A stretch of 36,315 nt of DNA from an uncultured Planctomycetia bacterium (lineage in GTDB: Bacteria; Omnitrophota; Gorgyraeia; JABMRJ01; CAYVIU01): NCBI GenBank assembly GCA_964451625.1, contig CAYVIU010000002.1, forward strand, positions 1-36,315. Reading direction: 5' to 3'. Positions 15,700 through 33,232 of the stretch are shown here, one piece after another. Numbering within the stretch: the first letter of the stretch is position 1; each line of letters opens with the position of its first letter. The notes below the pieces were generated by a model. The model saw only the letters and a program-made list of their open reading frames with translations. It did no database searches and was not told the origin of the DNA. A program made the translations under genes and the position numbers.

Positions 15700-17417
15700 A
15701 TGAAAATAAAGATTTTAGGCACAATAATATTTATACTGTTCGTGTTTCTTGTTGCGGGCCTCTTTTATCTGCAGGTCATACGCGGGGGCCACTATCTTGA
15801 AGAGTCTTTGTCCAACCGCATACGCCTGGAAGTCCTCCAGGCCCCGCGGGGAAGGATACTGGACCGGAACGGCAGGCTCATTGTAGGGAACAGGATCTCT
15901 TTTGATATTGCCGTTATCCCCCAGGAGATCAGTGAGAAAAAGGAAAAGGTCTTTTCCGGCCTGGGTGCGGTCCTGGGCATCCCGGTTTCGGAAATAGAAA
16001 ATACTTATAATAAAATCAAAACCAGCCCGCCCCGGCAATAGTCAAGCGCGACATAGGCAAGGAAAACGCCATCCGCCTGGAAGAAAAAAGGCTCAACCTG
16101 CCCGGTGTGGTGATCCAGACCAGCCCCCTGCGCAATTATGTTTACGACAGCACCGCCTGCCACGTTATAGGCTATCTCGGCCACATAAATAAGAAAGAGC
16201 TTACAAAGCTGCGCAACTACGGATACCAGAGAAGGGATCTCATCGGCCGCTCCGGAGTAGAAAAATATTATGACAATTACCTTAAGGGAAAAGACGGCGG
16301 CTCTCAACTGGAGGTCAACAACCGCGGCCGCCAGCTGAGGATGCTCGGCATAAAAGAGGCGGTTGCCGGAAAAGACATCAGCCTTACGATAGATATTGAT
16401 TTACAGGTCTTCATAGAAGAAAGCATGGGCGGGCACAGGGGGGCGATAGTCGTTATGGATTCAACTAACGGCGAAATACTCGGCATGCTGAGCAGGCCCG
16501 GTTTTGACCCGGACATGTTTGTCTCCGGGGCAAGCCCCGGGGCAATAAGCTCCTTTTTCAAAAGGTCTGATTTTCCCTTGGTGAACCGCGCGATAAGCGG
16601 CAGATATCCTCCGGGATCTGTATTCAAGGTTGTAGTGGCGTCCGCTGCCCTGGATAAAGAAAAGATAAATACACGCACGCATCTCGGATGCAAGGGGAGT
16701 TATACATTAGGAAGAAGGGTGTTCAGGTGCTGGAAAAAAAAGGGCCACGGTTCCCAGAATATCAGAGAGGCCATAAAAAATTCATGCAACGTATTTTTCT
16801 ATCAGATGGGCAGGATCGCGGGCGCCGATAACATTACAGAGTTTGCGAAAAAATTCGGTTTTGGAAAATCTACGGGCATTGACCTGCCGGGCGAGGTCTC
16901 AGGGCTTGTGCCCGGGAGGATGTGGAAGATGATGTCGATGAGGGAGAACTGGTATGAAGGCGACACCGTGAATTTTTCAATAGGCCAGGGATATCTCCTG
17001 GTCACGCCTCTGCAGATTGTAAGGATGATGGCGGCCTCGGGAAACGGCGGAAGGCTTATCCGGCCCCATGTTGTTAAAAGAATAGACGTGGTTGATGCCG
17101 CCTCACCTGATCCAAAACCAATCAGGATTTCGAAAGAGGCCCTCGAGATTGTAAAGGAAGGCCTGGATATGGTGGTGAACGCCGAGCGCGGCACGGGCCG
17201 AAAGGCACGCGTTAAAGGCCTTGACATCGGAGGCAAGACCGGCACTGCACAGGCAGGCAAAGACAAGACACACGCGTGGTTCTCAGGATTTTCTCCCGTG
17301 GATGACGCAAAGATGGCAGTGGTTGTTTTTCTGGAGCACGGGGGGAAGGGCGGCCTGAGTGCCAGTAAGATTGCCGGAGAGATATTCGGCAAGCTTCACG
17401 AGTTGGGATATTTATGA
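15700..17417 (+). pseudogene. mrdA: Penicillin-binding protein 2 (elongasome transpeptidase MrdA) interrupted by a 1-nt frameshift
   Basis: ORF 15700-16041 carries the TM anchor plus RGRILDRNG. ORF 16107-17417 carries the SxxK (SVFK), SxN (SCN) and KTG motifs. The second frame is already open and PBP2-like from 16014 (PAIVKRDIGKENAIRLEEKRLNLPGVVIQ). One extra C in the run at 16030-16033 would fuse both into one ~572-aa protein. Confidence 0.88.
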
Positions 17418-18508
17418 GAAATATATTACGTGATATAGACAGGCCATTGCTCATCGTGACGCTGGCCATATTTTTGATCGGGCTGGTCTCTATCTACAGC
17501 GCCACTCATGTATACGGCGGCTCGTTTAAAATATCCAATTTTGTCTTTAAGCAGATTATATGGATGCTCCTTTCCCTTGTAATATTTTTTGTTATCCTGA
17601 AGCTGGACTACCAGCGCCTCATAGACTGGGCCCACATAATCTATGCGGCCACCCTCGTCCTTCTCTTTCTCGTACTTATAATAGGCAGGACAAGGTTCGG
17701 CGCGCAGAGATGGTTCAGCATAGGAGGGCTTACACTCCAGCCGTCAGAGTTTGTGAAGATCGCATTCATACTTTCCCTGAGCGCATACCTCGGATACAAG
17801 GCAAGGTATTCGTATCGCATAAAAGACCTGGCCGCACCTTTCCTTATAATGGCCCCGGCATTTCTGATGATATTCATTCAGCCTGACCTGGGCACCGCAC
17901 TCACACTTGTCCCGATACTCCTGGTAATGCTTTTTATAAGGGGTGTAAATCCAAAACACCTCTTAACCATTATAGCCGCAGGTATTTTAAGCATACCCGC
18001 CGCCTGGCCTTTTTTAAAAGAATACCAGCGCGACAGGCTCCTTGTTTTTATAAATCCAAACATTGACCCGCTCGGCGCAGGATACACGGTGATCCAGTCA
18101 AGGATAGCCATAGGCTCAGGCACGTTCTTCGGCAAGGGCTGGCTTGCCGGCACACAGAATCAGCTTAACTTCCTTCCCGAGCGCCATACAGATTTTATAT
18201 TTTCAGTGATAGGGGAGGAGTGGGGGTTCGTAGGAAGCACGATCCTCGTGCTTCTATATGTAATACTTATTTACAGGGGCTTGAGGATAGCCTATAACAC
18301 CACGGATTCTTACGGAAAACTCGCTGCCTGCGGCATAGTTTGCATGCTTGCGTTTCAGATTGTAGTCAATATGGGAATGGCAATGGGGTTCATGCCTGTT
18401 GTGGGGCTGCCCCTGCCTCTTTTAAGCTACGGCGGCTCCTCGCTTCTCATGGTCATGACCTCGATCGCAATACTCCTCAATATCGGCATGCGCCGCACGA
18501 GATTCTAA
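17414..18508 (+). CDS. rodA: Peptidoglycan glycosyltransferase RodA (SEDS family)
   Basis: FtsW/RodA/SpoVE signatures (RFGAQRWF, QPSEFVKI, FLPERHTDFIF, GLPLPLLSYGGSS). ATGA overlap with mrdA. Confidence 0.95.
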   Translation: MRNILRDIDRPLLIVTLAIFLIGLVSIYSATHVYGGSFKISNFVFKQIIWMLLSLVIFFVILKLDYQRLIDWAHIIYAATLVLLFLVLIIGRTRFGAQRWFSIGGLTLQPSEFVKIAFILSLSAYLGYKARYSYRIKDLAAPFLIMAPAFLMIFIQPDLGTALTLVPILLVMLFIRGVNPKHLLTIIAAGILSIPAAWPFLKEYQRDRLLVFINPNIDPLGAGYTVIQSRIAIGSGTFFGKGWLAGTQNQLNFLPERHTDFIFSVIGEEWGFVGSTILVLLYVILIYRGLRIAYNTTDSYGKLAACGIVCMLAFQIVVNMGMAMGFMPVVGLPLPLLSYGGSSLLMVMTSIAILLNIGMRRTRF

Positions 18509-18528
18509 TGACAGGGGTAAAGTGAGAT

Positions 18529-20253
18529 ATGGATAAGGTTGTTTTTGAAAAGATGTTGGGTGAAGTGCAGAAGCCGGGCCGGTATATAGGCAATGAATAT
18601 AATTCCGTAAAAAAGGATTTATCCGGCGTAGACATAAAGTTTGCCCTGTGTTTTCCCGAGATGTATGAAATAGGGATGAGCCATCTCGGCTTCAAGCTTT
18701 TATACCACCTCTTAAACGAAAGAGCGGACATCGCATGTGAAAGGGCATTTGCCCCTGCCCCCGATTTTGAGGAACTTCTCAGAAAAAATAACCTGCCCCT
18801 CTTTTCCCTTGAATCAAAAAGGCCGTTGAAGGATTTTGACATTATCGGTTTTTCGCTTTCCTATGAAATGACATTTACAAATGTCCTGAACATGATGGAC
18901 CTTGCCGGGATCTCTCTTTTTGCAAAAGAACGCGGCGAAGGGGACCCGCTTATAATAGGCGGAGGCGTGGCGGCGTTCAACCCTGAGCCAATCCATGAAT
19001 TTTTTGATTTATTCGTCATAGGAGAATCAGAAGAAGTTATTTTTGAAATTATCGAAGAATACAAAAAGCACAAAAAGAAAACAAAAAAACGGGATTTGCT
19101 AAAGGCCCTCTCAAAAATAAAAGGTGTCTATGTCCCCAGTCTTTATAAAGCAGAGTACAACGCCGATGGGACGCTCGCGTCTTTAAAACCCACAAACAGC
19201 GCCGCCCCCGCCGTTATCGAAAAAAGGATGATAAATGACCTGGATAAATCTTTTTATCCGGAAAAACAGATTATCCCCTACATAAGGGTCGTTCACGACA
19301 GGGCCAGCCTCGAGATCATGCGCGGCTGTCCCAACAAATGCAGGTTCTGCCAGGCATGGGTGATATATCACCACAAAAGGGAACGCTCTCTGCCGAGGAT
19401 AGTTGAGCTCTCCGGAAAGAGCCAGCGTCTTACAGGGTATGATGAAGTTTCTCTGCTCTCTCTTTCGTCGGGCGACCATTCCGAGATAAGCGGCATCATC
19501 GGCCGGCTGGCGGACGAGTTTAAAGCTAAAGGCGTTTGCATATCGCTTCCGTCTCTGAGGATCGAGGAGGCGGTGAGGGAGTTCCCCGAAGTTTTAAAAA
19601 AACTTGGGATTCGCGGCCTGACATTCGCGCCCGAGGCCGGCACGCCCCGCATGAGAAAGATAATAAACAAAAATATTGATATCGCGCACCTTGAAGAGAC
19701 CGCCGGGCAGCTCTATAAATCCGGATGGAGGAGGGTGAAGCTGTATTTTATGATAGGCCTCCCCGGGGAAGGAGAAGAAGACCTCAAGGGCATCGTAAGG
19801 ATTGTCCACAAACTAAAAGGCAACATCACCCTGTCGATCTCATCCTTTATGCCGAAGGCACACACACCTTTCCAGTGGAGGGCCATGGATTCTCCCGATG
19901 AACTTGAAAATAAGTTCCTTTTCATAAGAAATAAGATAAAATCGAGGAGGGTAAAGATAAGCTTCCATGACAAGCGCCTGGGTTCTCTTGAGGCAGTTTT
20001 CTCAAGGGGCGACAGGCGCCTTGCCGGGGTTATATACGAAGCATTCAAAAACGGCGCAAAGTTCGACAGCTGGAGCGAGCACTTTAAATTTGAGGCATGG
20101 CAGGATGCCTTCAAAAAGACACGCACAGACCCCGGCTTTTATATTTACCGGAAAAGGGGCTATGAAGAGATTCTGCCGTGGGCACACATAAAAACGGGCA
20201 TCTCCACCGAATACCTTATTAAGGAATCCAGAGACGCGGACAACAGTATTTGA
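18529..20253 (+). CDS. B12-binding-domain radical SAM protein, TIGR03960-like
   Basis: N-terminal KPGRYIGNEYNSV, a B12-binding-like region, and CPNKCRFCQ (CxxxCxxC) in the radical SAM core. Confidence 0.85.
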   Translation: MDKVVFEKMLGEVQKPGRYIGNEYNSVKKDLSGVDIKFALCFPEMYEIGMSHLGFKLLYHLLNERADIACERAFAPAPDFEELLRKNNLPLFSLESKRPLKDFDIIGFSLSYEMTFTNVLNMMDLAGISLFAKERGEGDPLIIGGGVAAFNPEPIHEFFDLFVIGESEEVIFEIIEEYKKHKKKTKKRDLLKALSKIKGVYVPSLYKAEYNADGTLASLKPTNSAAPAVIEKRMINDLDKSFYPEKQIIPYIRVVHDRASLEIMRGCPNKCRFCQAWVIYHHKRERSLPRIVELSGKSQRLTGYDEVSLLSLSSGDHSEISGIIGRLADEFKAKGVCISLPSLRIEEAVREFPEVLKKLGIRGLTFAPEAGTPRMRKIINKNIDIAHLEETAGQLYKSGWRRVKLYFMIGLPGEGEEDLKGIVRIVHKLKGNITLSISSFMPKAHTPFQWRAMDSPDELENKFLFIRNKIKSRRVKISFHDKRLGSLEAVFSRGDRRLAGVIYEAFKNGAKFDSWSEHFKFEAWQDAFKKTRTDPGFYIYRKRGYEEILPWAHIKTGISTEYLIKESRDADNSI

Positions 20254-20278
20254 CAATGACTTATATATAATGTATACT
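20250..20278 (+). promoter_or_regulatory. Sigma70-type promoter upstream of the diguanylate cyclase gene
   Basis: TTGACA (20250-20255, overlapping the upstream stop), a 17-nt spacer, then TATACT (20273-20278). AGGAGG lies 6 nt before the ATG at 20351. Confidence 0.5.
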
Positions 20279-20350: not shown

Positions 20351-21781
20351 ATGATTAAGAAATTTATGAAAAAGAGGAGTCTGGTGCCCAAGGGCTTAAG
20401 ATATAAACTCATGATAGCATTTTCTTTAATGAGCGTTATACCGCTTTTGATATGCATGTATCTTGTCAGCACCTTCATATTCCCGAATGTGGAAACCATG
20501 GGCCAGGTAAGCATCATAGTCCTTTTTACCATATCGATTGCGTTCCTCGGGCTGGTCCTGGCAAAGCGGCTGGTTGACCCTGTGGTGGATATGGCCATTG
20601 AGGCAAAGATCATAGCCGGCGGCGAATACGATCACACTATAAAGACAGACAAGGAAGACGAAATAGGCGAGCTCGGAAAATCCATAAACACAATAACGAA
20701 AGAAATAAAAGAGTACATGAGTGAGCTCCATTCCTACAGCGTGCGCACAAAAGACATAAATCTCGAGATCCAGAAAAAGATATTAGCGCTCTCGAACCTC
20801 CTCCAGATAGGCGACATGATTGCCGCCTCCGAAGACATTGAAAGTATCCTGAACCTTGTCGTTGACAAAACCGCTGAAATCTCAAAAGACGGCCTGGCCG
20901 CACTTTACCTTTTAAGAGAAGACCATGAGGATACCGATGAGCTGGAGCTTTACGCATTCCATGGCAACGGCAAGAATGATCTCAAATCCATGCGTTTCCG
21001 TCTCGGAAGAGGATATGTCGGCCGCGCCATAGGCGCAAAGATAGGCATAACCATTGATGCCTCCACCAAGATGACAAAAGAGCTCGAAAGCGTTAAACAG
21101 GATTTTCAGGTGGAGAACTGTTTGATCATGCCTGTTGTCGTGCGCAGAAAGGTGATGGGTTTTCTCTTTACGGGAAACAATGAGGAAAAATTCAGGTTTT
21201 TAAAAGATGACCTTGAGCTGACAAAGGTTCTGGCAAAACAGATCGGCATAGCCATAGAAAACGACCTCCTGACAAGAAAGGCCGAACAGCTCGCGTTTAA
21301 AGATGACCTCACAGGGCTCTATAACGAGAGTTTTATAAAGAGCCGCCTTGATGAAGAAATCCACCGGGCGATACTGTGCCAGAGGCCGTGCTCGTTTCTC
21401 CTGTTTAATATCGACAATTTCACGAAATACCGCGATGCCCACGGGGAAATGGCCACTGAAGAGCTGCTCAAAATGGTTGCGCGCATATTAAAGGAAAACG
21501 CCACCGAGCTGGGCAAGGTCTCCCGCCTCGGAGGGGATGAGTTCGCCATAGTACTGCCTGAAAAAAATAAAAAAGAGGCATACGACACTGCAGAGGACAT
21601 ACGGAAAAAAGTACAAAAATTTGCCGAAAAGTCAAAAGAGAAAAATCAGGGCCTCCTAACCGTAAGTGCAGGCGTGAGCGAGAACCCCATCGACGGGGCA
21701 ACCGCGGAGGATTTGTTAAAAAAGGCCGTAGATGCCTTGAAGACTGCAAAAAAAGAAGGTAAAAACAGGGTTATAGCGTAA
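20351..21781 (+). CDS. Membrane-bound HAMP-GAF-GGDEF diguanylate cyclase
   Basis: Two N-terminal TM segments, a HAMP-like DEIGELGKSINTITKEI, a GAF-like middle region, and an intact RLGGDEF active-site motif. No RxxD I-site occurs at the usual position upstream of GGDEF. Confidence 0.9.
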   Translation: MIKKFMKKRSLVPKGLRYKLMIAFSLMSVIPLLICMYLVSTFIFPNVETMGQVSIIVLFTISIAFLGLVLAKRLVDPVVDMAIEAKIIAGGEYDHTIKTDKEDEIGELGKSINTITKEIKEYMSELHSYSVRTKDINLEIQKKILALSNLLQIGDMIAASEDIESILNLVVDKTAEISKDGLAALYLLREDHEDTDELELYAFHGNGKNDLKSMRFRLGRGYVGRAIGAKIGITIDASTKMTKELESVKQDFQVENCLIMPVVVRRKVMGFLFTGNNEEKFRFLKDDLELTKVLAKQIGIAIENDLLTRKAEQLAFKDDLTGLYNESFIKSRLDEEIHRAILCQRPCSFLLFNIDNFTKYRDAHGEMATEELLKMVARILKENATELGKVSRLGGDEFAIVLPEKNKKEAYDTAEDIRKKVQKFAEKSKEKNQGLLTVSAGVSENPIDGATAEDLLKKAVDALKTAKKEGKNRVIA

Positions 21782-21800: not shown

Positions 21801-22865
21801 ATGAAAACCGATATAAAAACATTATTGAGGCTGGTAATAAAAGAAGGCGCATCCGACCTTCACCTTGCAGCGGGCAAGCCGCCGCAGATACGCGTTGATG
21901 AAAAGATACTCTCCACAAAATACGACAAACTTATGCCGGCCGATACAAAGGAACTGGCCTACAGCATACTGTCCAAAGAGCAGATTGCCAGGTTTGAGCA
22001 AACCAAAGAGCTCGACATGTCATTCGGCCTGGAAGGCCTGAGCCGTTTCCGTGTAAATGTATATTTCCAGCGGGGCTGCATAGGGGTGGCTGTCAGGGCA
22101 ATACCTTTTAAGATAATGAGTTTTACAGAATGCGGCCTGCCCATTGATATAACAACGGACTTTTGCAAAAGGCCCAAAGGCCTGGTGCTTGTAACAGGGG
22201 CCACCGGCAGCGGAAAATCCACCTCACTCGCGTCAATGATAGACACGATAAACAAGGAAAGGGAGTGCCACATAATAACCGTTGAAGACCCGATAGAATT
22301 TGTCCACACGCACAAAAAGGCCATCGTAGAGCAGAGAGAACTGGGTGCGGACACACTTTCATTCGGCAACGCGCTTAAACATGTCCTGAGGCAGGACCCG
22401 GATGTCATATTGATAGGAGAGATGAGAGACCTTGAAACCATAGAGAGCGCGCTTATAATCGCCGAGACAGGCCACCTTGTATTTGCAACCCTTCACACAT
22501 CTGACTGCGTCCAGACGATAAACAGGATCATAGATGTTTTCCCGGCGCACCAGCAGTCCCAGATACGCGTTCAGCTTTCGTTTGTCCTGCTCGGGGTGCT
22601 GTCACAGCAGTTGATTCCAAAGGCAAAAGGAAAGGGGAGGGTGCTGGCAACAGAGGTCATGGTGGCCAATGCCGCTGTCCGCAGCATGATAAGGGAACAA
22701 AAGGCGCACCAGATTTATTCAGTTATCCAGACAGGCCAGAAGGCCGGCATGAAGGCCATGAACCAGGCCCTTCACGAACTTTGCGTAAAGGGTGAGATAA
22801 CGCGTGAAGATGCATTTGCAAGAAGCACTGATCCTGTTGACCTGACAAGATTGTTCGGGCGTTAA
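21801..22865 (+). CDS. pilT: Type IV pilus retraction ATPase PilT
   Basis: Walker A GATGSGKST, DPDVILIGEMRD, ETGHLVFATLHT, and the PilT-specific AVRSMIREQKAHQI. Confidence 0.93.
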   Translation: MKTDIKTLLRLVIKEGASDLHLAAGKPPQIRVDEKILSTKYDKLMPADTKELAYSILSKEQIARFEQTKELDMSFGLEGLSRFRVNVYFQRGCIGVAVRAIPFKIMSFTECGLPIDITTDFCKRPKGLVLVTGATGSGKSTSLASMIDTINKERECHIITVEDPIEFVHTHKKAIVEQRELGADTLSFGNALKHVLRQDPDVILIGEMRDLETIESALIIAETGHLVFATLHTSDCVQTINRIIDVFPAHQQSQIRVQLSFVLLGVLSQQLIPKAKGKGRVLATEVMVANAAVRSMIREQKAHQIYSVIQTGQKAGMKAMNQALHELCVKGEITREDAFARSTDPVDLTRLFGR

Positions 22866-22883
22866 CAATACACAGAGGCAAGA

Positions 22884-23336
22884 ATGAGTCCGATAAGAAG
22901 GATGGTTACAAAACAATTGGGTGAACTCCTCCTGGAGAGGGGCGTTATAAATAAAAAACAGCTTGAAAAATCCCTCCAGATCCAGAAGGAAAAAGGCGGG
23001 CTCCTGGGCCAGGTCATGGTGGGCCTGGGCTATGCCACCGAAGAAGAGATCGCCCAGGTCATAACCATCCAGTACGGTTTTCCATATCTGCCGCTGACCG
23101 GTTATGAAATAGACCCGGAGAGCGTAAAGCTGGTTCCCCGGCAGGTTGCGACCCAATACGGCCTTATTGCCATAGATAAGATCGGAGACACCCTTACTCT
23201 GGCCATGTCAAATCCCCTCAATATCCAGGCCATAGAAGACGTTGAGTTCATAACCAAATGCAAGGTCCAGTCTTTTGTATGCACCCTTTCAGACGTTAAT
23301 ACGGCGATATCAAAATATTACAAAAAAGAAAAATAA
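22884..23336 (+). CDS. Stand-alone T2SSE_N / MshEN-like domain protein (no ATPase domain)
   Basis: The 150-aa product aligns with the N-terminal domains of both downstream PilB paralogs. It contains two 24-residue motifs (QLGELLLERGVINKKQLEKSLQIQ and LLGQVMVGLGYATEEEIAQVITIQ) separated by the 5-residue spacer KEKGG. Confidence 0.8.
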   Translation: MSPIRRMVTKQLGELLLERGVINKKQLEKSLQIQKEKGGLLGQVMVGLGYATEEEIAQVITIQYGFPYLPLTGYEIDPESVKLVPRQVATQYGLIAIDKIGDTLTLAMSNPLNIQAIEDVEFITKCKVQSFVCTLSDVNTAISKYYKKEK

Positions 23337-23342
23337 ACCGAT

Positions 23343-25073
23343 ATGGCTCAAGCCCTTTCAAGAGAAAAACTAAACAAGGAACTTATTAAAAAGGGCGTTG
23401 TCTCAAAAGAAAACCTGGAGAAGGCCCTTTCCATCCAGAAGCAAAAAGGCGGCAAGCTGAGCGATATCCTCGTGGAGAACGCCTTCGTCGACAGAAAGAC
23501 GCTCATGTCTTTTCTGAGCCTGGAGCTGGGTATTCCCCCGATAGACCTGTCCAGGTACAAGATAGACCAGAAGATCCTGGAACTTATCCCTAAAAAGATA
23601 GCCCGCCATTATCAGATCGTCCCCATATCAAAAATAGGAAACCTCCTTACAATTGCAATGGCGGACCCGCTGAACATATTTGCGACAGATGACATAAAAA
23701 CATTGACCGGTCTCAAGCTCGGCGTGGTTATCTCCACCGACAAGGATATAAAAGATGCGCTTGACCAGTATTACGGTGAAAAGGCCCACCAGGTTATTGA
23801 AAAAATCATAGAGGGCATCGAAGAGGAAAAAAATATCCATATGGTAGAAGGGGGATCCGCCGAACAAATGGATTCCCTGAGCCTCATAAAGCTCACACAG
23901 GAAGCGCCGATAGTTAAAATCACAAACCTGCTTTTAAGCGAGGCCGTAAAATTAAAGGCCAGCGATATCCTCATAGAGCCGATGGAAACAGAGCTCAGGG
24001 TCCGCTACCGGGTGGACGGCATTCTCCAGGAAGGCCGCAGCCCCGCAAAAAGCATGCAGCAGGCCATAGTATCGCGTATTAAGGTAATGAGCCTGTTGAA
24101 CATCGCAGAGCGCAGGCTTCCGCAGGACGGAAGGTTCAAGATAAAAATAGATGAGCGGGAGGTGGATTTCAGGGTATCGGTTCTCCCGTCAAGCTTCGGG
24201 GAAAAGGTGGCCTTGAGAATCCTTGATAAGAGCCAGGCCACACTTGATGTGAAAAAACTCGGGTTTGAAGACGCACCCCTTTTAGAACTCAAAAAGGCCT
24301 CCGGCTATCCCCACGGCATGATACTTGTCTGCGGCCCCACCGGCTGCGGCAAAACCACAACGCTCTATTCAATTCTTAAAGACATAGACACCCCCGAAAA
24401 AAACATAGTTACCGTGGAAGACCCGGTGGAATACCAGCTCAAGGGAATAAATCAGGTTACAATCCATCCTGACATAGGCCTTACATTCGCCAGCTCATTA
24501 AGGTCTATTTTAAGACAGGACCCCGATATAATAATGGTCGGCGAGATAAGGGATTTTGATACAGCAGACATTGCCATCAAGGCAGCGCTCACAGGCCATC
24601 TGGTACTCTCCACCCTCCACACAACGACTGCGTGCGGGTCTATAACCAGGCTTGTAAACATGGGCGTGGAGCCGTTTTTGATGGCGTCATCCGTAATTTT
24701 AGTCGCGGCCCAGCGCCTCGTAAGAAAGCTCTGCCCGAAGTGCAAAGAAAAATATAAACTCCCCGAAGGTGAAAAAAAAGAACTAGGGCTTTCGGAAATA
24801 AAAGAATCCGTATTTTACAGGGCAGCCGGATGTAAATCCTGCATTGACACGGGTTATAAAGGAAGGATAGGCCTCACAGAAACGCTTTTTCTCTCACCCA
24901 TGGTAAGGGAGCTCATTGCAACAAAGGCGGGAGAGGCCCGGATAAAAATTCAGGCGAGGAAAGACGGCATGAAATCCTTGAGAGAAAACGGTATACAGAA
25001 GGCCGTCTCCGGGATCACATCGCTTGAAGAAGTATTAAGGGTGACGGTCGGAGACCAGGAAGTAGGCGTATAA
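23343..25073 (+). CDS. pilB: Type IV pilus assembly ATPase, PilB/GspE family, paralog 1
   Basis: T2SSE_N domain, Walker A GPTGCGKTT, DPDIIMVGEIRD, TGHLVLSTLHT, and tetracysteine CPKC...CKSC. Confidence 0.9.
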   Translation: MAQALSREKLNKELIKKGVVSKENLEKALSIQKQKGGKLSDILVENAFVDRKTLMSFLSLELGIPPIDLSRYKIDQKILELIPKKIARHYQIVPISKIGNLLTIAMADPLNIFATDDIKTLTGLKLGVVISTDKDIKDALDQYYGEKAHQVIEKIIEGIEEEKNIHMVEGGSAEQMDSLSLIKLTQEAPIVKITNLLLSEAVKLKASDILIEPMETELRVRYRVDGILQEGRSPAKSMQQAIVSRIKVMSLLNIAERRLPQDGRFKIKIDEREVDFRVSVLPSSFGEKVALRILDKSQATLDVKKLGFEDAPLLELKKASGYPHGMILVCGPTGCGKTTTLYSILKDIDTPEKNIVTVEDPVEYQLKGINQVTIHPDIGLTFASSLRSILRQDPDIIMVGEIRDFDTADIAIKAALTGHLVLSTLHTTTACGSITRLVNMGVEPFLMASSVILVAAQRLVRKLCPKCKEKYKLPEGEKKELGLSEIKESVFYRAAGCKSCIDTGYKGRIGLTETLFLSPMVRELIATKAGEARIKIQARKDGMKSLRENGIQKAVSGITSLEEVLRVTVGDQEVGV

Positions 25074-25074
25074 T

Positions 25075-26793
25075 ATGTCCCAGTTTATAAAAGAAAAATT
25101 ACAAAAACTCCTTATAGGGTCGAAACTCATAAAGGAGTCTGATTTTAAGAAGGCCCTCGGCGTCCAGAAGAAAAAGGGAGGCGGCCTTGGAAAGATACTT
25201 GTAGCCCAGGGCTCCATTACAGAGAGGGACCTTCTCATAATCCTGAGCCGCGAGCTTAATGTTCCCCCGATAGACCTCTCAAAGTATAAAATAGACCCGA
25301 AGGTGGCCCAGCTTGTCCCTGAAAAAATAGCAAAGCAGTACGAACTTGTCCCTCTTTCAAAAATGGGCAACCGCCTCACTGTCGCGATGACAGATCCGTT
25401 GAACCTCTTTGCCATCGACGACATAAAAACACTCACCGGCTATGACATAGACATGGTCCTGGCAACCGAAAGCGATATCAAGGCCGCCTTAAGCAATATC
25501 TACGGTACCACAATAGCAGAAGTCACAAAACTCATAGATGAGTCCAAAAAAGGCGCAGATGTAGAGATGGTGGAGGCCGCGGACATAGATATAGGGAACC
25601 TTGCCGAGGAATCCAAAAAGGCGCCGATCGTAAAGGTGGTAGACCTTATTTTAACAGAGGCAATAAAAAGGAGGGCAAGCGATATTCACATAGAGCCCGG
25701 CGAGGATTCGTTGAGGATCCGCTACCGCATTGACGGCAATCTCCAGGAAGTGCTGAACCTGCCCAAGAAAAATCAGAATGCGGTACTGGCAAGGCTCAAG
25801 ATCATGTCAAGGCTGGATATCACTGAAAACCGCATTCCCCAGGACGGGAGATTTAAGATAAGGCTTGAGGAAAAAGAGATAGATTTCAGGGTCTCTGTTT
25901 TGCCCGTGGGATTCGGCGGAAAGGTCGTATTAAGGGCGCTTGATAAAGCCAACCTCAGTATCGGGCTTGATAAGCTCGGGTTTCTGCCCGGACCCCTTGA
26001 AACATTCAGAGAGGCGATTAAAAACCCTTACGGCATGATACTTGTTACAGGCCCCACGGGAAGCGGTAAATCCACCACGCTTTATTCCATATTAAACCAA
26101 TTGAACACACCGAAGGTGAATATAATTACAATAGAAGACCCTGTTGAATATCAGGTCGAGGGTATCACGCAGATCCAGGCAAACCATGACATAGGCCTTA
26201 CATTTTCAAGCGGCTTGAGGAGTCTCCTGAGACAGAGCCCGGATATAGTGATGATCGGCGAGATAAGAGATTCTGAAACCGCCGACATCGCGGTGAAGGC
26301 CTCGCTGACAGGAGAGCTTGTCTTCAGCACCCTGCATACAAATGACGCTGCCGGGGCAATAACGCGCCTTGTAGATATGGGCGTGGAGCCGTTTCTAATA
26401 GCATCAAGCCTTGTGCTTACAGTGGCCCAGAGGCTCTGCAGAAAGATATGCCCCGCCTGCAAGGTGCCTGTCAATATCCCGGAGGCAGTCCTTAAGAACG
26501 CCGGGATTCCCTTAAGCGATCTCTCCAGGAAAAAAGGCGGCAAGGTGGTTTTTTATAAAGGCAAGGGATGCAAAAAATGCGACCACACCGGCTACCATGG
26601 AAGAATGGGCACGCTTGAGACGCTTTTAATAGATGACAAAATCAGAGACCTGATAATACAGAAGAAAACGAGCGACGAAATAAAACAATACGCCGTCAGT
26701 AAAGGGATGAAGACTTTAAGGGACAACGCCCTTTTTAAACTGGCATCAGGCTTAACAACATTAGAAGAGGTCCTAAGAATCGCATCGGAATAA
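25075..26793 (+). CDS. pilB: Type IV pilus assembly ATPase, PilB/GspE family, paralog 2
   Basis: T2SSE_N domain, Walker A GPTGSGKST, SPDIVMIGEIRD, TGELVFSTLHTNDAAGA, and tetracysteine CPAC...CKKC. Confidence 0.9.
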   Translation: MSQFIKEKLQKLLIGSKLIKESDFKKALGVQKKKGGGLGKILVAQGSITERDLLIILSRELNVPPIDLSKYKIDPKVAQLVPEKIAKQYELVPLSKMGNRLTVAMTDPLNLFAIDDIKTLTGYDIDMVLATESDIKAALSNIYGTTIAEVTKLIDESKKGADVEMVEAADIDIGNLAEESKKAPIVKVVDLILTEAIKRRASDIHIEPGEDSLRIRYRIDGNLQEVLNLPKKNQNAVLARLKIMSRLDITENRIPQDGRFKIRLEEKEIDFRVSVLPVGFGGKVVLRALDKANLSIGLDKLGFLPGPLETFREAIKNPYGMILVTGPTGSGKSTTLYSILNQLNTPKVNIITIEDPVEYQVEGITQIQANHDIGLTFSSGLRSLLRQSPDIVMIGEIRDSETADIAVKASLTGELVFSTLHTNDAAGAITRLVDMGVEPFLIASSLVLTVAQRLCRKICPACKVPVNIPEAVLKNAGIPLSDLSRKKGGKVVFYKGKGCKKCDHTGYHGRMGTLETLLIDDKIRDLIIQKKTSDEIKQYAVSKGMKTLRDNALFKLASGLTTLEEVLRIASE

Positions 26794-26876: not shown

Positions 26877-28091
26877 ATGCCCAGATATAAATATATTGCG
26901 AAGGAGAAGAGCGGTAAATCGGTGACAGGGGTGCTGGAGGCCGGCGACCAGCATGAACTCATCACGGTCCTCAGAAAAAAAGAGCTCGTCATAGTTTCAA
27001 TAGATGAAGAGACCTCAAAACTGAAGGCCCTTTCCTTTTCATTCGTAAAAACCAAAGTAAAACTCGATGACCTTGTAATATTTTCAAGGCAGCTGGCAAC
27101 CATGGTGGAGGCAGGCATACCCCTTGTAACCGCGCTCGATATTCTCGGAGAGCAGCTGGAAAACAAGACCTTTAAGGATGTAATTTTAAAAGTGAGGGAC
27201 GATGTTGAGACAGGCAGCTCCCTCTCCGAAGGCATGGCAAAGCACCCTAATATTTTCTCAAATCTTTTTGTAAACATGGTAAAGGCAGGGGAAACCAGCG
27301 GTACCCTGGATGAGATCCTGGACAGGGTGGCGACATACCTGGAAAAGACAAGCGCCCTCCAGAAAAAGGTTAAAGCCGCAATGATATACCCGGCCGTAAT
27401 CACAACCATGGCCATTCTGGTCACAGCAGTCCTTTTGATAAAAGTCATACCCGTCTTTAAAGAGATCTATTCCGGTTTCGGAGCAGAACTCCCCAAGCCG
27501 ACAGCAATCCTTATAGGTACCAGCGAATTTGTAAGAAGGTATTTTATCTTTTTTGTTGCCATGATAGCGGGCGGTATATTCATGCTTAATCGCTATGCCA
27601 AAACCGAAAAGGGGAAATTGACAATTGACAAAACCGTCCTCAGGCTGCCCGTATTCGGGATCCTCTTAAGGAAGGTGGCGGTGAGTAAGTTCACCCGCAC
27701 CCTTTCCACTCTTATAAGGAGCGGGGTGCCCATACTGAATTCACTGGAAATCGTGGGAAAGACTGCCGGCAACAAGGCAGTGGAGGTTTCGGTGGAGGAG
27801 GTCCGCTCAAGCATAAGGGAGGGGGAGAACATTGCCGAGCCCCTGGCCAAGAGCAAGATCTTCCCGCCCATGGTCATCAGGATGGTCTCTGTAGGGGAGA
27901 AGACGGGTGAGCTTGAAAAGATGCTCTCCAAAATAGCCGATTTCTACGATGAGCAGGTGGATGCCGCTGTAAGCGGCCTGACCAGCATGATAGAGCCCCT
28001 CATAATAGCCTTTTTGGGGGTGGTTATAGGCACCATAGTTATCTGTATGTTCTTACCAATATTCAAGATATCGACATACATCTCTGTGTGA
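26877..28091 (+). CDS. pilC: Type IV pilus platform protein PilC (GspF family)
   Basis: Duplicated T2SSF domains (FSRQLATMVEAGIPL and FTRTLSTLIRSGVPI) with three TM segments. A GAGGAGG RBS lies upstream. Confidence 0.93.
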   Translation: MPRYKYIAKEKSGKSVTGVLEAGDQHELITVLRKKELVIVSIDEETSKLKALSFSFVKTKVKLDDLVIFSRQLATMVEAGIPLVTALDILGEQLENKTFKDVILKVRDDVETGSSLSEGMAKHPNIFSNLFVNMVKAGETSGTLDEILDRVATYLEKTSALQKKVKAAMIYPAVITTMAILVTAVLLIKVIPVFKEIYSGFGAELPKPTAILIGTSEFVRRYFIFFVAMIAGGIFMLNRYAKTEKGKLTIDKTVLRLPVFGILLRKVAVSKFTRTLSTLIRSGVPILNSLEIVGKTAGNKAVEVSVEEVRSSIREGENIAEPLAKSKIFPPMVIRMVSVGEKTGELEKMLSKIADFYDEQVDAAVSGLTSMIEPLIIAFLGVVIGTIVICMFLPIFKISTYISV

Positions 28092-28681: not shown

Positions 28682-28715
28682 GGCGGCAAGGTTAAATCTT
28701 GCCGCCTTTTTATTT
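28682..28715 (+). terminator. Rho-independent terminator after the first pilin
   Basis: GGCGGCAAG-GTTAAAT-CTTGCCGCC (9-bp GC-rich stem) followed by TTTTTATTT. Confidence 0.8.
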
Positions 28716-29551: not shown

Positions 29552-29958
29552 TGAATAAAAAAGGCATGAGCCTTGTAGAAGTGATAGTTGCCCTCGCGCT
29601 TCTGGTGCTTTCTATAGGAAGCATCCTGGGTGTATTAATACAGAACATGAATACAGGAAGGACCATAGACTACAGCTATGTTGCCACCAACCTTGCCAAA
29701 AACAGGATTGAGAGATTGAGGGAGGTAAGGCGTGACAGGGGCTATGCCGATCTTGCAAACTGGGGAGAAACCGATGTGGCAATAGACCGCGACGGCGTCC
29801 CTGACAATGAGGGAGATTTCCAGCGCACCACCATTGTTGACGCAGCGTACGGCACCAATCTTACCCAGGTTACAGTGCAGGTAAAATATGCGCCGCGCGG
29901 CGTATTTGTAACAGCTCAAACAGAACTTATAACATTATTATCGCCATATTATGAATAG
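29548..29958 (+). CDS. Minor pilin, PilV/GspI-like
   Basis: MMNKKG/MSLVEVIVALALLVLSIGSILGVL with E+5, 136 aa. ATGA overlap with the preceding pilin. Confidence 0.7.
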   Translation: MMNKKGMSLVEVIVALALLVLSIGSILGVLIQNMNTGRTIDYSYVATNLAKNRIERLREVRRDRGYADLANWGETDVAIDRDGVPDNEGDFQRTTIVDAAYGTNLTQVTVQVKYAPRGVFVTAQTELITLLSPYYE

Positions 29959-32113
29959 CAACAAAAAGGGAATGAGCCTTGCTGAGATCCTGATCGCCTC
30001 TGCGGTTACATTTTTAGTCCTGAGTGTTTCATTTACGCTCTGGAGTATTGCCGAGACAGCCTGGTATGGTGAACGCGCCAGGGCAAAAACCCTTATGGAA
30101 TTGGAAATCGCCATGGAAAGGATAAAAAAAGAACTGCGCAGCTCAACCGGGGACCTTATGTTTTTCTATCCCGAAGATGCATCCGTGTATGAGGCAGTAA
30201 GCTTTCCAATAGCAGTGGATAATGACGGCGATGGTTTCATAGAACTCGACAACAACAACACCCCGGATGAACCAACAGATGACACCATTATATGGGACCG
30301 GACCGTTATATACCATGTTTTCAATACAGGTACAAGCATGGATCTAAGGAGGACCATCTTTGATCCGCGTTCCAGTCTTAACGATACCCAAAGGCAGTCT
30401 CAGATTGACAGCGTAATTGCAAACGGCGCGGCAATAGGGAGCACCCCTAACAATGCAAATGCATCAACAAGAACCATCTTCAGCAAAGAAGTTCTTTCAG
30501 AGCAGGATGCCATTTTACTTCAAATTGCCCCCAAGCTGCGTGAGTTTGACGGGTATAGCGCTGCATTAGATAGGAGTTCCAATGTGAGCTTTGGAAGCAT
30601 ACCGCTTGCCGGCGAGTACCACACCATAAGTTTTAAGACAACAGGCCAAAATACTGCATCATCGAGCTTTGGCCTGGGCGTGGACCTTTTCAGGATCACC
30701 CCCAGCGGCTCTGACAGGGAAGGCGAAGATTACACTTTCCTGAAGCACCCTGACAATTCAGTCGGCGTATCTGCCACGTCCGGCGACACGACCACAAGAG
30801 AAGACATGAGTTCCTACGGCAGCTGGAGCGGTGACCATCACCTCGAGTATGAGGCAAACGGCGTGGACGACTATATAACACTAAGGTTTTATAACGACGC
30901 CTGGAGGGAATCAAACTTTGATTCAGGAACAAGCGACCTGGTGGTTGCAGAGCTCAGCGCCAGGACAGGGGTCTTTGACAACCTGATTGCTTCCTCTGAC
31001 GGCATAGTGCGGCTTGAAGGCGGAGGAAGCGTATGGTTTGCATCAGACCAGACAGGGGCTGTTGTGCAGACAATTGATGTCATCCCTCCGGCAGGAGGCA
31101 GCACAATCAGAAACGTGATCTCCGGAGGATTTATCGGTGAAGACGGAAGGCTCATAAGAGTGAAATTCGCTGCAGGCTCAACCGGCCCCCTAACCATAAG
31201 CCATGCATTTATCTGCAAAAGAAAAGAAGCGCAGGACCCGAGTGAGGCCCAGGACGGCGAGGCACCCTCAAGCAGTATTACCTTTTCAGGAGGCGCAAGC
31301 GTTGTTATAGCCGCAGATGATTCAGTATGGTCGGACTGGATAGACCTTGGCGCAAACATAGACAAGAGCAACGACTATTTTATCAGTATTCATCTTCCCC
31401 AGCCAAATGGCACACAGCACAGCCTTGCCTATTGGGAAGATGCAAGCGGGCTGGGCCATTCATATACAAGGACAGGCGGAGATTTTGCCGGCACCCTTAT
31501 CTGGGCCGCAGCCGGCACTGAAGACACCAACGTTTACGTGCTTGAAGAAATCGAGGCAAGCTATGTTGACAGCGGAAACTTTACCTCGCAGATCTATGAT
31601 ACAGGTATTGCCAATCCGGGATTTGCAACAATGACCTGGGACATCACAAGGAACAATTATCCTGACGCAAACTGTATTTTAAGGGCAAGATCAAGTGACG
31701 ATAAAGACAGCCTCCTGGCTGATTCTGACTGGTCAGATGAAGTTGCAGTCAATACATTTTCGGCAGTCCAGGGGAGCGCAGGCATAAGTGCAATAGGCAC
31801 AGGCCGGTACGTGCAGTTTAACGCAGATTTTATTTCAACAGGTACTGACCCGGGGGAACAGACCGCTGATCAGTACGATATGAGTTCAATATTGAAAGCA
31901 GTGGCCATTTACTGGCCGGGTGCCACAACAGCGTGTGCCCTGAGCGGATATTTTACAATGAAGCCGAGCTATGGCATCTTCACCGTGGAAATAGACGGCC
32001 AACCTCTTACGAAAGGCTTTGAGGTAAAACTTGAACTGGCCGAGGAAATCTTCGGAACCCTGGTGGAGCGCACCCTTACAACTGAAGTTGAGCCGCGGAA
32101 CACAGGACTATAA
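29951..32113 (+). CDS. Large pilin-like protein (PilW/GspJ-like N-terminus plus ~650-aa extension), candidate tip/adhesin subunit
   Basis: MNSNKKG/MSLAEILIASAVTFLVLSVSF with E+5. The remaining ~650 aa belong to no family I recognise. It contains a DNDGDGFIE calcium-loop-like motif. Confidence 0.7.
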   Translation: MNSNKKGMSLAEILIASAVTFLVLSVSFTLWSIAETAWYGERARAKTLMELEIAMERIKKELRSSTGDLMFFYPEDASVYEAVSFPIAVDNDGDGFIELDNNNTPDEPTDDTIIWDRTVIYHVFNTGTSMDLRRTIFDPRSSLNDTQRQSQIDSVIANGAAIGSTPNNANASTRTIFSKEVLSEQDAILLQIAPKLREFDGYSAALDRSSNVSFGSIPLAGEYHTISFKTTGQNTASSSFGLGVDLFRITPSGSDREGEDYTFLKHPDNSVGVSATSGDTTTREDMSSYGSWSGDHHLEYEANGVDDYITLRFYNDAWRESNFDSGTSDLVVAELSARTGVFDNLIASSDGIVRLEGGGSVWFASDQTGAVVQTIDVIPPAGGSTIRNVISGGFIGEDGRLIRVKFAAGSTGPLTISHAFICKRKEAQDPSEAQDGEAPSSSITFSGGASVVIAADDSVWSDWIDLGANIDKSNDYFISIHLPQPNGTQHSLAYWEDASGLGHSYTRTGGDFAGTLIWAAAGTEDTNVYVLEEIEASYVDSGNFTSQIYDTGIANPGFATMTWDITRNNYPDANCILRARSSDDKDSLLADSDWSDEVAVNTFSAVQGSAGISAIGTGRYVQFNADFISTGTDPGEQTADQYDMSSILKAVAIYWPGATTACALSGYFTMKPSYGIFTVEIDGQPLTKGFEVKLELAEEIFGTLVERTLTTEVEPRNTGL

Positions 32114-33232
32114 ATGAATAAAAAAGGAATAGCATTTTTAACTACAGTTATAATACTCGGCATAATAACCCTTGTATGCGCCGGGCTTACATTTGTTGTT
32201 ATCAATGATGCGTACAGCATAAAACAGCTGCGCTATGCCACACAGGCATTTTGCCTTGCAGAGGCAGGTGTTGAAGAGGCAGTACGCACACTTTATGATA
32301 CAGGCTTTGACACCTCCGGATACCCGATGGCAAACATTGCATTGGGAAACGGCACTTACAGCGTGGCCCTGACAAATCATCCCACGGATGACCTGGTGCT
32401 GATTACATCTACAGGTACTGTCCGGGGTGTTTCGAGGACAGTTGAGGCGATGGTCAGGGACAATACCATTGATGCATTTACTTATCCGGTCCTCTGCGGC
32501 GGCAGGCTTTTTATAGCGGGAGGACTGGCACTTTTTGGAGGAGCGAACACACAGGTTTACGGCGGGGATGTACGCTCTAACAGCGCCAATCAGAACTGGG
32601 CCGTGTATGTCGGCGGCCTTATAACAAGCGGCTATGTGGACGAAGACGCATATGCATGTGGGAGAATCAGGAGGAGCTGGTTAGGTGTTATAAACGGCGA
32701 TGAAAACCCAAACTCTCCTGCCGTTGAGATGCCGCCTTTCGACGCAAGTTTTTTTGATTATTATAAAGACCTGGCACAAAACGGAGGTTTGTATTATAAT
32801 GGGCACAAGACATTTACGGCCGGTACATACACACCGGGAAACGGCGTAATGTTTGTAAACGGCAATGCGACCGTGCGGGGAAACGTTACAATAAACGGAT
32901 GCCTGGTTGCGACTGGCCAGATTCGCGTTAACCCCAATTTTGGAAATTATACATTTACACAGAACCAGGTAGGGAACCTCCCCGCGCTCATGACCAAGGG
33001 AGGGAACATAGGAATATATTGCCCGTCCACAATAAACGGGCTTATATATACAAGCAACAGAATTACAACCTTTTCACTTCCGGTATTGGGGGTCATAGAT
33101 ATAGACGGTATTGTGATAGGAAAAGGCGGCGTATTTTTATATGCAGTGACACAGGTAGATTTTGTGCCTCAGACTGTGCCGGGCATCCCCGGAACTGATT
33201 CACCGGTGCAGATAGAGGCATGGAGCGGATAA
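32114..33232 (+). CDS. PilX/GspK-like pilin-like protein lacking Glu+5
   Basis: MNKKG/IAFLTTVIILGIITLVCAGLTFVV has a PilX_N-like hydrophobic helix with no E at +5. The C-terminal half is rich in G/N/T beta-strand-like repeats (GNATVRGNVTINGCLVATGQIRV). Confidence 0.65.
   Translation: MNKKGIAFLTTVIILGIITLVCAGLTFVVINDAYSIKQLRYATQAFCLAEAGVEEAVRTLYDTGFDTSGYPMANIALGNGTYSVALTNHPTDDLVLITSTGTVRGVSRTVEAMVRDNTIDAFTYPVLCGGRLFIAGGLALFGGANTQVYGGDVRSNSANQNWAVYVGGLITSGYVDEDAYACGRIRRSWLGVINGDENPNSPAVEMPPFDASFFDYYKDLAQNGGLYYNGHKTFTAGTYTPGNGVMFVNGNATVRGNVTINGCLVATGQIRVNPNFGNYTFTQNQVGNLPALMTKGGNIGIYCPSTINGLIYTSNRITTFSLPVLGVIDIDGIVIGKGGVFLYAVTQVDFVPQTVPGIPGTDSPVQIEAWSG

Follow-up and report, generated by a model that had tools for sequence, protein, structure and literature searches.

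A stand-alone MshEN domain of Omnitrophota, encoded directly ahead of pilB1, as a candidate trans-acting c-di-GMP sensor of the pilus extension motor

In this work we describe a gene from a stretch of 36,315 nucleotides of an uncultured bacterium, labelled Planctomycetia in GenBank and placed in Omnitrophota by GTDB (assembly GCA_964451625.1, contig CAYVIU010000002.1, positions 1 to 36,315 of the forward strand); this whole stretch is called the window below. The gene, named mshEN here, sits in a motor operon for type IVa pili (T4aP), and its product is a MshEN/GSPII domain free of any ATPase. MshEN is an established and widespread receptor domain for cyclic di-GMP (c-di-GMP; PMC5013675), and in the Omnitrophota, an ultra-small and possibly host-dependent phylum, T4aP are nearly universal and have been proposed to play a role in host attachment (PMC10066038). 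The stand-alone protein keeps ligand-contacting residues that the PilB ATPases encoded beside it have lost, its gene precedes pilB1 wherever the downstream neighbour can be read, and in a few relatives the two proteins are fused. We consider it moderately likely that it is a detached sensor domain, which would act in trans on the extension ATPase PilB1 in response to c-di-GMP.

The locus

The features of the locus are the following.

22884..23336, + strand: mshEN, stand-alone MshEN/GSPII gene, an open reading frame (ORF) from ATG to TAA, 150 amino acids (aa)
22874-22878, + strand: Shine-Dalgarno-like AGAGG, 5 nt before the ATG of mshEN, from reading of the sequence
22914..23072, + strand: MshEN_N subdomain, the 53-residue 24-5-24 motif (residues 11-63), a predicted four-helix bundle (NF053729, AlphaFold2)
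23073..23330, + strand: MshEN_C/T2SSE_N1 subdomain, residues 64-149 (PF05157, alpha/beta elements of the AlphaFold2 model, Foldseek)
21801..22865, + strand: pilT, retraction ATPase (TIGR01420 at 484 bits)
23343..25073, + strand: pilB1, T4aP extension ATPase whose MshEN motif is degenerate (Pfam T2SSE and MshEN, TIGR02538 at 659 bits)
25075..26793, + strand: pilB2, second PilB paralog, in which motif 1 is degenerate (Q10) and the His box has a non-canonical form (TGE)
26877..28091, + strand: pilC, platform protein (two Pfam T2SSF matches)
20351..21781, + strand: gene for a membrane HAMP-GAF-GGDEF protein (Pfam), first gene of the operon
20250..20278, + strand: promoter-like site TTGACA-17-TATACT upstream of the GGDEF gene, 11/12 positions, a consensus match only
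28682..28706, + strand: terminator-like hairpin past the first pilin gene, the first strong one on this strand after the promoter-like site

The ORF had been described in a first-pass annotation made from the letters of the window alone, and its reading from ATG to TAA is confirmed here. It starts 18 nt past the stop of pilT and ends 6 nt ahead of the start of pilB1, the successive gaps from the GGDEF gene through pilT, mshEN, pilB1 and pilB2 to pilC being 19, 18, 6, 1 and 83 nt. Because the first strong + strand hairpin after the promoter-like site follows the first pilin gene, the order GGDEF-pilT-mshEN-pilB1-pilB2-pilC, possibly with this pilin gene, suggests a single transcription unit.

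Domain content and fold of the stand-alone protein

The Pfam MshEN model PF05157 scores 69.1 bits over residues 64-149 (cut-off 23.1), and the NCBIfam model NF053729 ('c-di-GMP_motif') scores 54 bits over residues 11-61 (cut-off 38, E = 1e-14). No second domain was found beside these in the Pfam and NCBIfam scan of the protein, and the MshEN match is therefore far beyond chance. Neither database detects a PilZ, EAL or GGDEF-derived receptor domain on it, and Pfam gives no match to the ATPase domain PF00437. The PilB equivalog model TIGR02538 aligns over its positions 2-139 of 564 only, with 74.7 bits against a cut-off of 675.65, so that the protein, having neither the T2SSE ATPase domain nor a full-length score, falls outside PilB; the NfrB model NF008411 scores it at 57 bits. 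The first-pass annotation had called it a free-standing MshEN protein made of the T2SSE N-terminal domain only, which holds since nothing else is detected on it.

Motif 1 (residues 11-34) reads QLGELLLERGVINKKQLEKSLQIQ, the spacer (residues 35-39) is KEKGG and motif 2 (residues 40-63) reads LLGQVMVGLGYATEEEIAQVITIQ; all three, and hence the 24-5-24 layout, had been read correctly at first pass. In the window protein positions 2-3 are a hydrophobic residue and Gly, position 10 is G/A/S, positions 6, 7, 11, 12, 17 and 21 are hydrophobic, position 24 is Gln, and the spacer has five residues. NF053729 matches 67/67 aligned family members at E <= 1e-9.

An AlphaFold2 model, computed from the 67-sequence family alignment, has a mean pLDDT of 88.1 and a pTM of 0.73. 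It places helices at residues 12-18, 24-37, 41-47 and 53-64, followed by an alpha/beta subdomain, while residues 1-11 are non-helical with low pLDDT, helix alpha-1 beginning at L12. The top match of this model in a Foldseek search of the PDB is the Vibrio cholerae MshEN domain with bound c-di-GMP (5HTL, E = 1.5e-10, TM 0.65-0.70). Foldseek gives a probability of 1.00 for 5HTL, for GSPII-A and GSPII-B of Thermus PilF, for the X. citri PilB N1 domain and for the XpsE N-domain, and partial matches to the EpsE/GspE N1 domain complexed with GspL (2BH1 and 4PHT). The PDB entries 7LKM-7LKO, named 'Pilus biogenesis protein', were considered as a solved stand-alone homolog and rejected, as they are the X. 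citri PilB N1 domain with PilZ. By sequence the closest solved relatives are PilF, a protein with three GSPII domains that gives the best PDB match, and Geobacter PilB. The stand-alone protein is thus one complete MshEN/GSPII domain, a four-helix bundle followed by a T2SSE_N1 subdomain. In GspE/PilB-type ATPases the T2SSE_N1 subdomain is the part that touches components of the machine.

Position 1 of the two motifs

The first residue of motif 1 is Q11 (Q in 74/83 orthologs), directly preceded by K10, which is invariant in the family, and that of motif 2 is L40 (L in 83/83 orthologs); R5, R6 and K10 make up a basic N-terminal patch. Position 1 is R in the strict consensus, [RKPN] in the relaxed motif of Wang et al. 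2016 (PMC5013675) and R/K/L in the extended consensus of 2024. Q11 belongs to none of these sets and L40 fits R/K/L only. The extension to R/K/L comes from the work of Neissner et al. (2024) on PilF GSPII-B, which has a dissociation constant (KD) of ~6 nM for c-di-GMP, carries K and L at the two position-1 sites, with L196 stacking on a guanine, and still binds with a KD of 2 nM when motif-1 position 1 is changed (K167L). L40, which corresponds to L196, may therefore be counted as a positive sign. The remark of the first-pass annotation that the Arg of position 1 is missing in all three paralogs of the locus is literally true, but PilB1 (K9, K38) and PilB2 (K8) carry Lys, an accepted substitute, and the stand-alone protein is alone among the three in having non-basic residues there. 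Pattern searches with either the relaxed or the extended set would overlook a large, probably functional MshEN family with Q and L at position 1.

Conservation and distribution

A protein search over 5.8 billion proteins gave 2,699 matches, and the description here rests on the best 120. Nearly all of these are stand-alone proteins of 143-155 aa, with a few shorter fragments and two proteins in which the N-subdomain is duplicated (213 and 221 aa). Identity to the window protein is mostly 63-94% and falls to 56% in one 213-aa variant. In the variants of 213-221 aa (variant loci and proteins of the family being P0015, P0042, P0128, L106 10034-10486 and L121), it is the MshEN_N four-helix bundle that is duplicated, with both motifs intact. 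The few named sources among the best 120 are Omnitrophota or Omnitrophica metagenome-assembled genomes (MAGs), where the protein is labelled 'hypothetical protein'; some others are called 'PilB' by JGI, which is an over-annotation. Scanning a single genome from each GTDB species with the family alignment gave at least 548 loci, the best 80 of which are all of the stand-alone type and come from MAGs labelled Omnitrophota, some with automated 'Planctomycetia' labels. Orthologs from more than 80 Omnitrophota MAG loci share 60-94% identity, and the mean identity within the stand-alone family is 66%.

Outside Omnitrophota, matches in other phyla are N-domains of full-length PilB proteins, save for a Ratteibacteria-labelled MAG, with the order GGDEF-pilT-MshEN-pilB, and another doubtfully labelled 'Actinomycetes'. 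Stand-alone and multi-MshEN proteins are plentiful among the 20,122 cluster representatives that match the window protein. More distant stand-alone homologs (44-53% identity) still lie directly ahead of pilB, with a rodA, REC or GGDEF gene upstream, and one at 43% identity (P0179) is found in a non-pilus context.

This conservation bears on the idea that mshEN is what remains of a pilB after truncation or duplication, or is translated into pilB1 by programmed read-through, to which we give a probability close to nil. It draws on the window itself, where the ORF is in frame with pilB1 and separated from it by TAA ACC GAT only. The frame is the same in 26/80 loci, as many as chance would give; the arrangement in the window is therefore coincidental, and programmed read-through or frameshifting into pilB1 was rejected. 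A truncated pilB, named at first pass as the finding that would undo the idea of a functional receptor, was looked for and rejected as well, since ATPase debris is absent, pilB1 follows after 6 nt, hundreds of genomes have kept the gene, and its orthologs show 60-94% identity with the functional residues invariant. A recent duplication of the neighbouring PilB1 N-domain was rejected on the distances and a neighbour-joining tree: the stand-alone domain is 35% identical to the N-domains of PilB1 and PilB2, which are 44% identical to each other, and the stand-alone family forms one clade, with weak support (62/100 bootstraps) and unresolved deep branches.

Gene order around mshEN

ATPase-less T2SSE_N genes beside pilB, of which the first-pass annotation had envisaged a survey, were followed in 83 Omnitrophota loci, 80 of them with downstream sequence and 79 with enough upstream sequence. 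The downstream neighbour of mshEN is pilB1 in 80/80 loci, followed nearly always by pilB2 and then pilC where the sequence extends. The gap to pilB1 is mainly -4 to +9 nt, most commonly -4, -1, 0 or +3, and stop/start overlaps are frequent; gaps of this size are consistent with translational coupling of mshEN and pilB1. On the upstream side the HAMP-GAF-GGDEF gene adjoins mshEN directly in ~37 loci and is separated from it by pilT in ~41, and a GGDEF gene lies within two genes upstream in 78/79 loci.

The first-pass annotation had placed the gene between pilT and pilB and proposed that its product is an adaptor or switch between the PilT and PilB hexamers. The position is true of the window and of ~41/83 orthologous loci, but family-wide pilT is upstream in only about half of the loci, and this disfavours the switch. 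In the ~37 loci where pilT does not adjoin and the GGDEF gene is directly upstream, the mshEN-pilB1 pair is unchanged, and in more distant homologs a REC gene or rodA takes the upstream place. In addition, PilT has no MshEN-type partner domain, and the natural fusions described below are made with PilB1 and not with PilT. We therefore regard a PilT-PilB switch as very improbable.

Some loci depart from the common order. In one, a second stand-alone MshEN gene lies between pilB2 and pilC, in another two stand-alone MshEN genes are in tandem, and one Omnitrophota MAG (JBAZEH01; L009 and L070) has two GGDEF-MshEN-pilB1 loci on different contigs.

Comparison with the N-domains of PilB1 and PilB2

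In the window, N11 and S40 occupy the two Gly sites of PilB1, whose spacer is KQKGG; PilB2 has Q10 at the first Gly site and the spacer KKKGG, and motif 2 ends in E in both. The first-pass reading of the two paralogs as more degenerate copies of the same 24-5-24 frame agrees with ours in each of these residues and spacers. PilB1 reaches 46 bits with NF053729, and PilB2, at 36.4 bits, stays under the cut-off of 38.

Every MshEN domain of the collected loci was then aligned to the family profile and scored at the motif positions of Wang et al. The position-3 Gly and position-24 Gln are intact in both motifs in 82/83 stand-alone proteins, 0/81 PilB1 and 0/66 PilB2. The motif-1 Gly site holds G in the stand-alone family, mostly T in PilB1 and mostly I, V or L in PilB2; the motif-2 site holds G, mostly S, and G in 32/66, respectively. 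Mean pairwise identity over the 53-residue region is 71% for the stand-alone family, 50% for PilB1 and 43% for PilB2, and G13, G42, Q34, Q63, L12, L16, L40 and K10 are invariant in the 67 family members. The residues concerned matter for binding in V. cholerae MshE, in which G11L abolishes it, G40I lowers it 72-fold and single Leu-to-Ala changes cost more than 10-fold, while changes of R9, D12 or Q32 shift affinity at most ~5-fold (PMC5013675). Our main argument is that the stand-alone protein appears to be kept for ligand binding because the PilB N-domains of the same genomes lose ligand-contacting positions. The claim made at first pass, which ranks it above both PilBs of the locus as a predicted c-di-GMP binder, is borne out and extends to 83 orthologous loci. 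All PilBs that adjoin a stand-alone MshEN, distant loci included, are without both Gly residues, and several PilBs at loci without one retain them, for example the second PilB of WOR-3 loci.

The two PilBs also differ in their ATPase parts. In PilB2 (25075-26793) the His box begins with TGE instead of the conserved TGH; its orthologs have TGQ (43), TGE (2) or TGH (1/66) there, and PilB2 may be a catalytically altered partner. PilB1 (23343-25073) keeps TGH and has an unusual Walker A, GPTGCGKT, shared with 38/74 orthologs. The clearly differentiated tandem of PilB1 and PilB2 is reminiscent of PilB/TfpB in Acinetobacter.

Natural fusions to PilB1

One of the 50%-identity cluster representatives, a protein of 765 aa (P0137), begins with a domain of the stand-alone type that shares 44% identity with the window protein (E = 2e-40), continues with a Gly/Lys/Asn-rich linker of ~45 residues and ends with a PilB1-type part 52% identical to the PilB1 of the window, whose own N-domain is degenerate (RVITLL, SLLNTL) as in PilB1. 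Its gene lies on a 50-kb contig (L198) and is followed by a second pilB (pilB2) and then pilC. A protein search with P0137 brought up two further proteins fused in this way, which lie on independent contigs: P0271 (767 aa, 84% identity) and P0272 (754 aa, 66%). The latter has a shorter linker and is the sole fused form with a taxon label, Candidatus Omnitrophota bacterium at NCBI. The matches that come next are all unfused PilB1 of ~574 aa. All three fused proteins have two MshEN stretches and T2SSE, with flexible linkers of 30-45 residues. The MshEN-PilB1 fusion is therefore real and secondary, and it links the stand-alone protein functionally to PilB1. The layout that results, (MshEN)2-T2SSE, is known from Clostridia, and (MshEN)3-T2SSE from PilF (Wang 2016, PMC5013675). 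In the window, as in 80/80 loci, the MshEN domain and the MshEN-T2SSE protein are separate ORFs instead of one polypeptide, and the window protein would work like the extra domain of such multi-GSPII ATPases without being a member of this class.

The fusions also bear on a c-di-GMP-gated decoy or inhibitor, a free T2SSE_N1 that would compete with the N1 domain of PilB for its PilM or PilC site and block extension until c-di-GMP alters its conformation, or the reverse; a decoy had been named at first pass as one option. The C-terminal subdomain does retain typical N1 features and gives the partial fold matches to GspE N1 complexed with GspL mentioned above (2BH1, 4PHT), and small protein inhibitors of PilB, CpiA and PlzR, exist. 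A competitor is nevertheless hard to square with three sequences in which the domain is fused to PilB1 itself; obligatory co-translation with pilB1 (80/80) and retention throughout the phylum suggest a stoichiometric subunit, and the variability of an inhibitor is not seen in a family that is 66% identical on average. We hold the decoy to be rather improbable.

Other fusions of closely related MshEN domains occur among the cluster representatives (P0153, P0155, P0164): in a protein of 454 aa MshEN is joined to a Bac_DnaA ATPase domain, one of 288 aa is MshEN-PilZ, and one of 723 aa is MshEN-PilZ-DUF7305/adhesive domain. P0164 (723 aa, 50% identity) was considered as a fused PilB and rejected, as it is MshEN-PilZ-DUF7305 with no ATPase.

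The upstream GGDEF protein

The HAMP-GAF-GGDEF protein of the window has a canonical GGDEF signature (SRLGGDEFAIVL), and inspection shows no RxxD I-site in it or in the 13 examined orthologs with a canonical GGDEF. Only 14/76 orthologs, the window protein included, have the canonical signature, 5 have SGDEF and 2 AGDEF; the others have GDDEF, GDNEF, ADDEF, SGDTF and similar sequences, and the synteny persists even after the cyclase signature is lost. Because most orthologs are non-canonical, a simple model in which a local diguanylate cyclase feeds the local receptor fails across the phylum, and as a general explanation it is weakened. The protein may instead be a scaffold or a signal input.

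Proposed function

From the conserved ligand-contacting residues, the coupling to pilB1 and the fused forms, we infer that the stand-alone protein binds c-di-GMP, contacts PilB1 and activates pilus extension. It would bind one c-di-GMP in the canonical MshEN mode, the guanines being held by the Leu clusters and by the backbone amides of G13/E14 and G42/Q43, with Q34 and Q63 holding the ribose-phosphate and L40, and Q11 or K10, capping the bases. Supplied in trans, it would add one more N-terminal ring domain to the PilB1 motor or to a PilB1/PilB2 motor, the split equivalent of the (MshEN)2-3-ATPase layout of Thermus PilF and clostridial PilBs, and the motor would thereby regain a control of extension by c-di-GMP that has been lost from the degenerate ATPase N-domains. 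The stand-alone MshEN thus probably supplies the c-di-GMP sensing that is missing from the motor ATPases. The positive direction of the effect would follow known cases: GSPII-B of PilF, by binding c-di-GMP, supports twitching and adhesion (Neissner 2024), and in both V. cholerae MshE and Thermus PilF such binding promotes pilus-dependent behaviour (PMC11656802; Neissner 2024).

Several observations weigh against this proposal. The motif-1 Q (74/83) sits outside both published sets, [RKPN] and R/K/L. GSPII-A of PilF has a near-consensus motif and fails to bind c-di-GMP, so that conformity of sequence is no proof of binding. The PilB1 ATPase may itself retain some c-di-GMP binding, since its 46 bits exceed the NF053729 cut-off. 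The correlation between the presence of a stand-alone MshEN and motif loss in PilB may represent one evolutionary event, as the stand-alone family looks monophyletic (62/100 bootstraps). The fused forms number three sequences only, and the GGDEF partner is non-canonical (not GGDEF, SGDEF or AGDEF) in ~70% of orthologs.

The precedent of GSPII-A leads to an alternative in which the stand-alone protein is a non-binding, structural GSPII domain, an architectural subunit or adaptor acting in trans on PilB1/PilB2, for example in docking to PilM or PilC. The unusual Q of motif 1 and a GGDEF protein that is mostly degenerate across the phylum would both fit such a role. The Gly and Gln contacts are, however, invariant in the stand-alone protein and freely lost in the N-domains of PilB1 and PilB2, which presumably keep a structural role. 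Moreover the site of GSPII-A is blocked by an N-capped, extended helix alpha-1 and by contacts between subdomains. The N-cap, L-T-I-G-D-K, has no counterpart in the stand-alone protein (R6...T9): no L-T-x-x-D-K-type sequence stands five residues before motif 1 (I4-R5-R6-M7-V8-T9), and the predicted helix begins at L12, a static AlphaFold2 model being unable to settle dynamics. Retention of the motif in the duplicated four-helix bundles and NF053729-level scores in 67/67 members also speak for binding. A purely structural role is for these reasons unlikely in our estimation. As a variant of the sensor model we tentatively consider a composite motor particular to Omnitrophota, in which PilB1, a catalytically altered PilB2 and MshEN as an obligate third subunit would work together, with the GGDEF protein as scaffold or input and not as a cyclase; this may be possible, and we do not rate it as probable.

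In such a composite motor the stand-alone protein would be the first MshEN domain to regulate an ATPase of the secretion superfamily in trans, with sensing, docking and catalysis re-partitioned among separate polypeptides. On the sensor model Omnitrophota would have a phylum-wide pilus regulatory subunit that has so far gone unannotated ('hypothetical protein') or been misnamed 'PilB'. The N1/MshEN domain of PilB-type motors is understood less well than any other part of the type IV pilus machine: structures resolve this flexible domain poorly, and the signal path from c-di-GMP to the ATPase is unclear (PMC11656802). A lineage with a naturally detached N1 domain, degenerate copies in cis and rare re-fused forms is a natural experiment on PilB N1. 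A detached sensor permits titration against the motor, a structure of the complex and the separation of docking from sensing, which are impossible with a fused domain.

Relation to known systems

The closest structural relative, the V. cholerae MshEN domain (5HTL; PMC5013675), has the same two-subdomain fold and the same 24-5-24 motif with its Leu, Gly and Gln sites, and the window protein shares its basic N-terminal patch. The window protein differs from it in being free of the ATPase and in having Q and L at position 1 instead of the R9 and R38 of MshE, and the two are ~29% identical. Thermus thermophilus PilF (GSPII-A/B/C; 6F8L, 8PDK, 9G1W) likewise has extra GSPII domains upstream of a GSPII-ATPase, a Leu at motif-2 position 1 in GSPII-B, its nanomolar binder, and a mixture of binding and non-binding domains within one motor. 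The extra domain is a separate gene product here, fused in three relatives only, and the degenerate domain is the one that adjoins the ATPase, whereas in PilF the non-binder is the most N-terminal domain (A).

The Pseudomonas aeruginosa protein PA3740, composed of MshEN_N and a divergent T2SSE_N1, bound c-di-GMP when tested and has been linked to swarming (Wang 2016 Supplementary Table 3, PMC5013675). It resembles the window protein in that its listed architecture is limited to MshEN-type parts and lacks an ATPase or any further enzymatic domain, and in its role in surface motility; its C-subdomain is highly diverged and it was never retrieved as a close relative. The FimX-PilZ-PilB complex of Xanthomonas and Pseudomonas (7LKM-7LKO; PMC8389850) follows the same regulatory logic, but with unrelated receptors, a degenerate EAL in FimX and a PilZ adaptor, whose genes are not translationally coupled to pilB. 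In a further system an MshEN receptor is paired with a GGDEF protein: Escherichia coli NfrB (GT2-MshEN) reportedly works with a dedicated cyclase, DgcJ, in local signalling, as described by Junkermeier and Hengge in 2021. There the output is a glycosyltransferase and not a pilus motor, and in the Omnitrophota loci most orthologs of the GGDEF partner are degenerate. To our knowledge PA3740, for its part, is not encoded in a pil motor operon.

The first-pass annotation had known of no characterised stand-alone MshEN encoded in a T4aP motor operon, and our literature search likewise found none described. A plain single-MshEN architecture is not listed in Supplementary Table 4 of Wang 2016 (PMC5013675). 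The search, which included a 2024 review of PilB cofactors (PMC11656802) and a 2023 paper on Omnitrophota genomics (PMC10066038), gave no report of a stand-alone MshEN fixed and translationally coupled in a T4aP motor operon, of motif loss in both cis PilB copies or of fused and split forms, and a search on MshEN in Omnitrophota gave nothing relevant.

Other genes and loci

The remaining genes of the window include pilins, pilM, pilN and pilO. At 29951-32113 a 720-aa ORF without Pfam match has a pilin-like N-terminus (MNSNKKGMSLAEILIASAV...) and may be a giant minor pilin or a tip adhesin; it is followed at 32114-33232, upstream of pilM, pilN and pilO, by a 372-aa ORF also without Pfam match. 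On the other side of the motor operon, at 16107-20253, the cell-shape genes mreD, PBP2 and rodA and a Radical_SAM_N2 gene are syntenic with it across Omnitrophota (L001, L002, L004 and others).

In Verrucomicrobiota, two loci (L026 4990-5967 and L031 4152-5042) have an ORF of ~300 aa ahead of pilB, whose C-terminal part is a weakly matching, degenerate MshEN-like domain, and the MshEN motifs of the PilBs at these loci are fully degenerate. This ORF may represent an independent accessory N1-like protein upstream of pilB.

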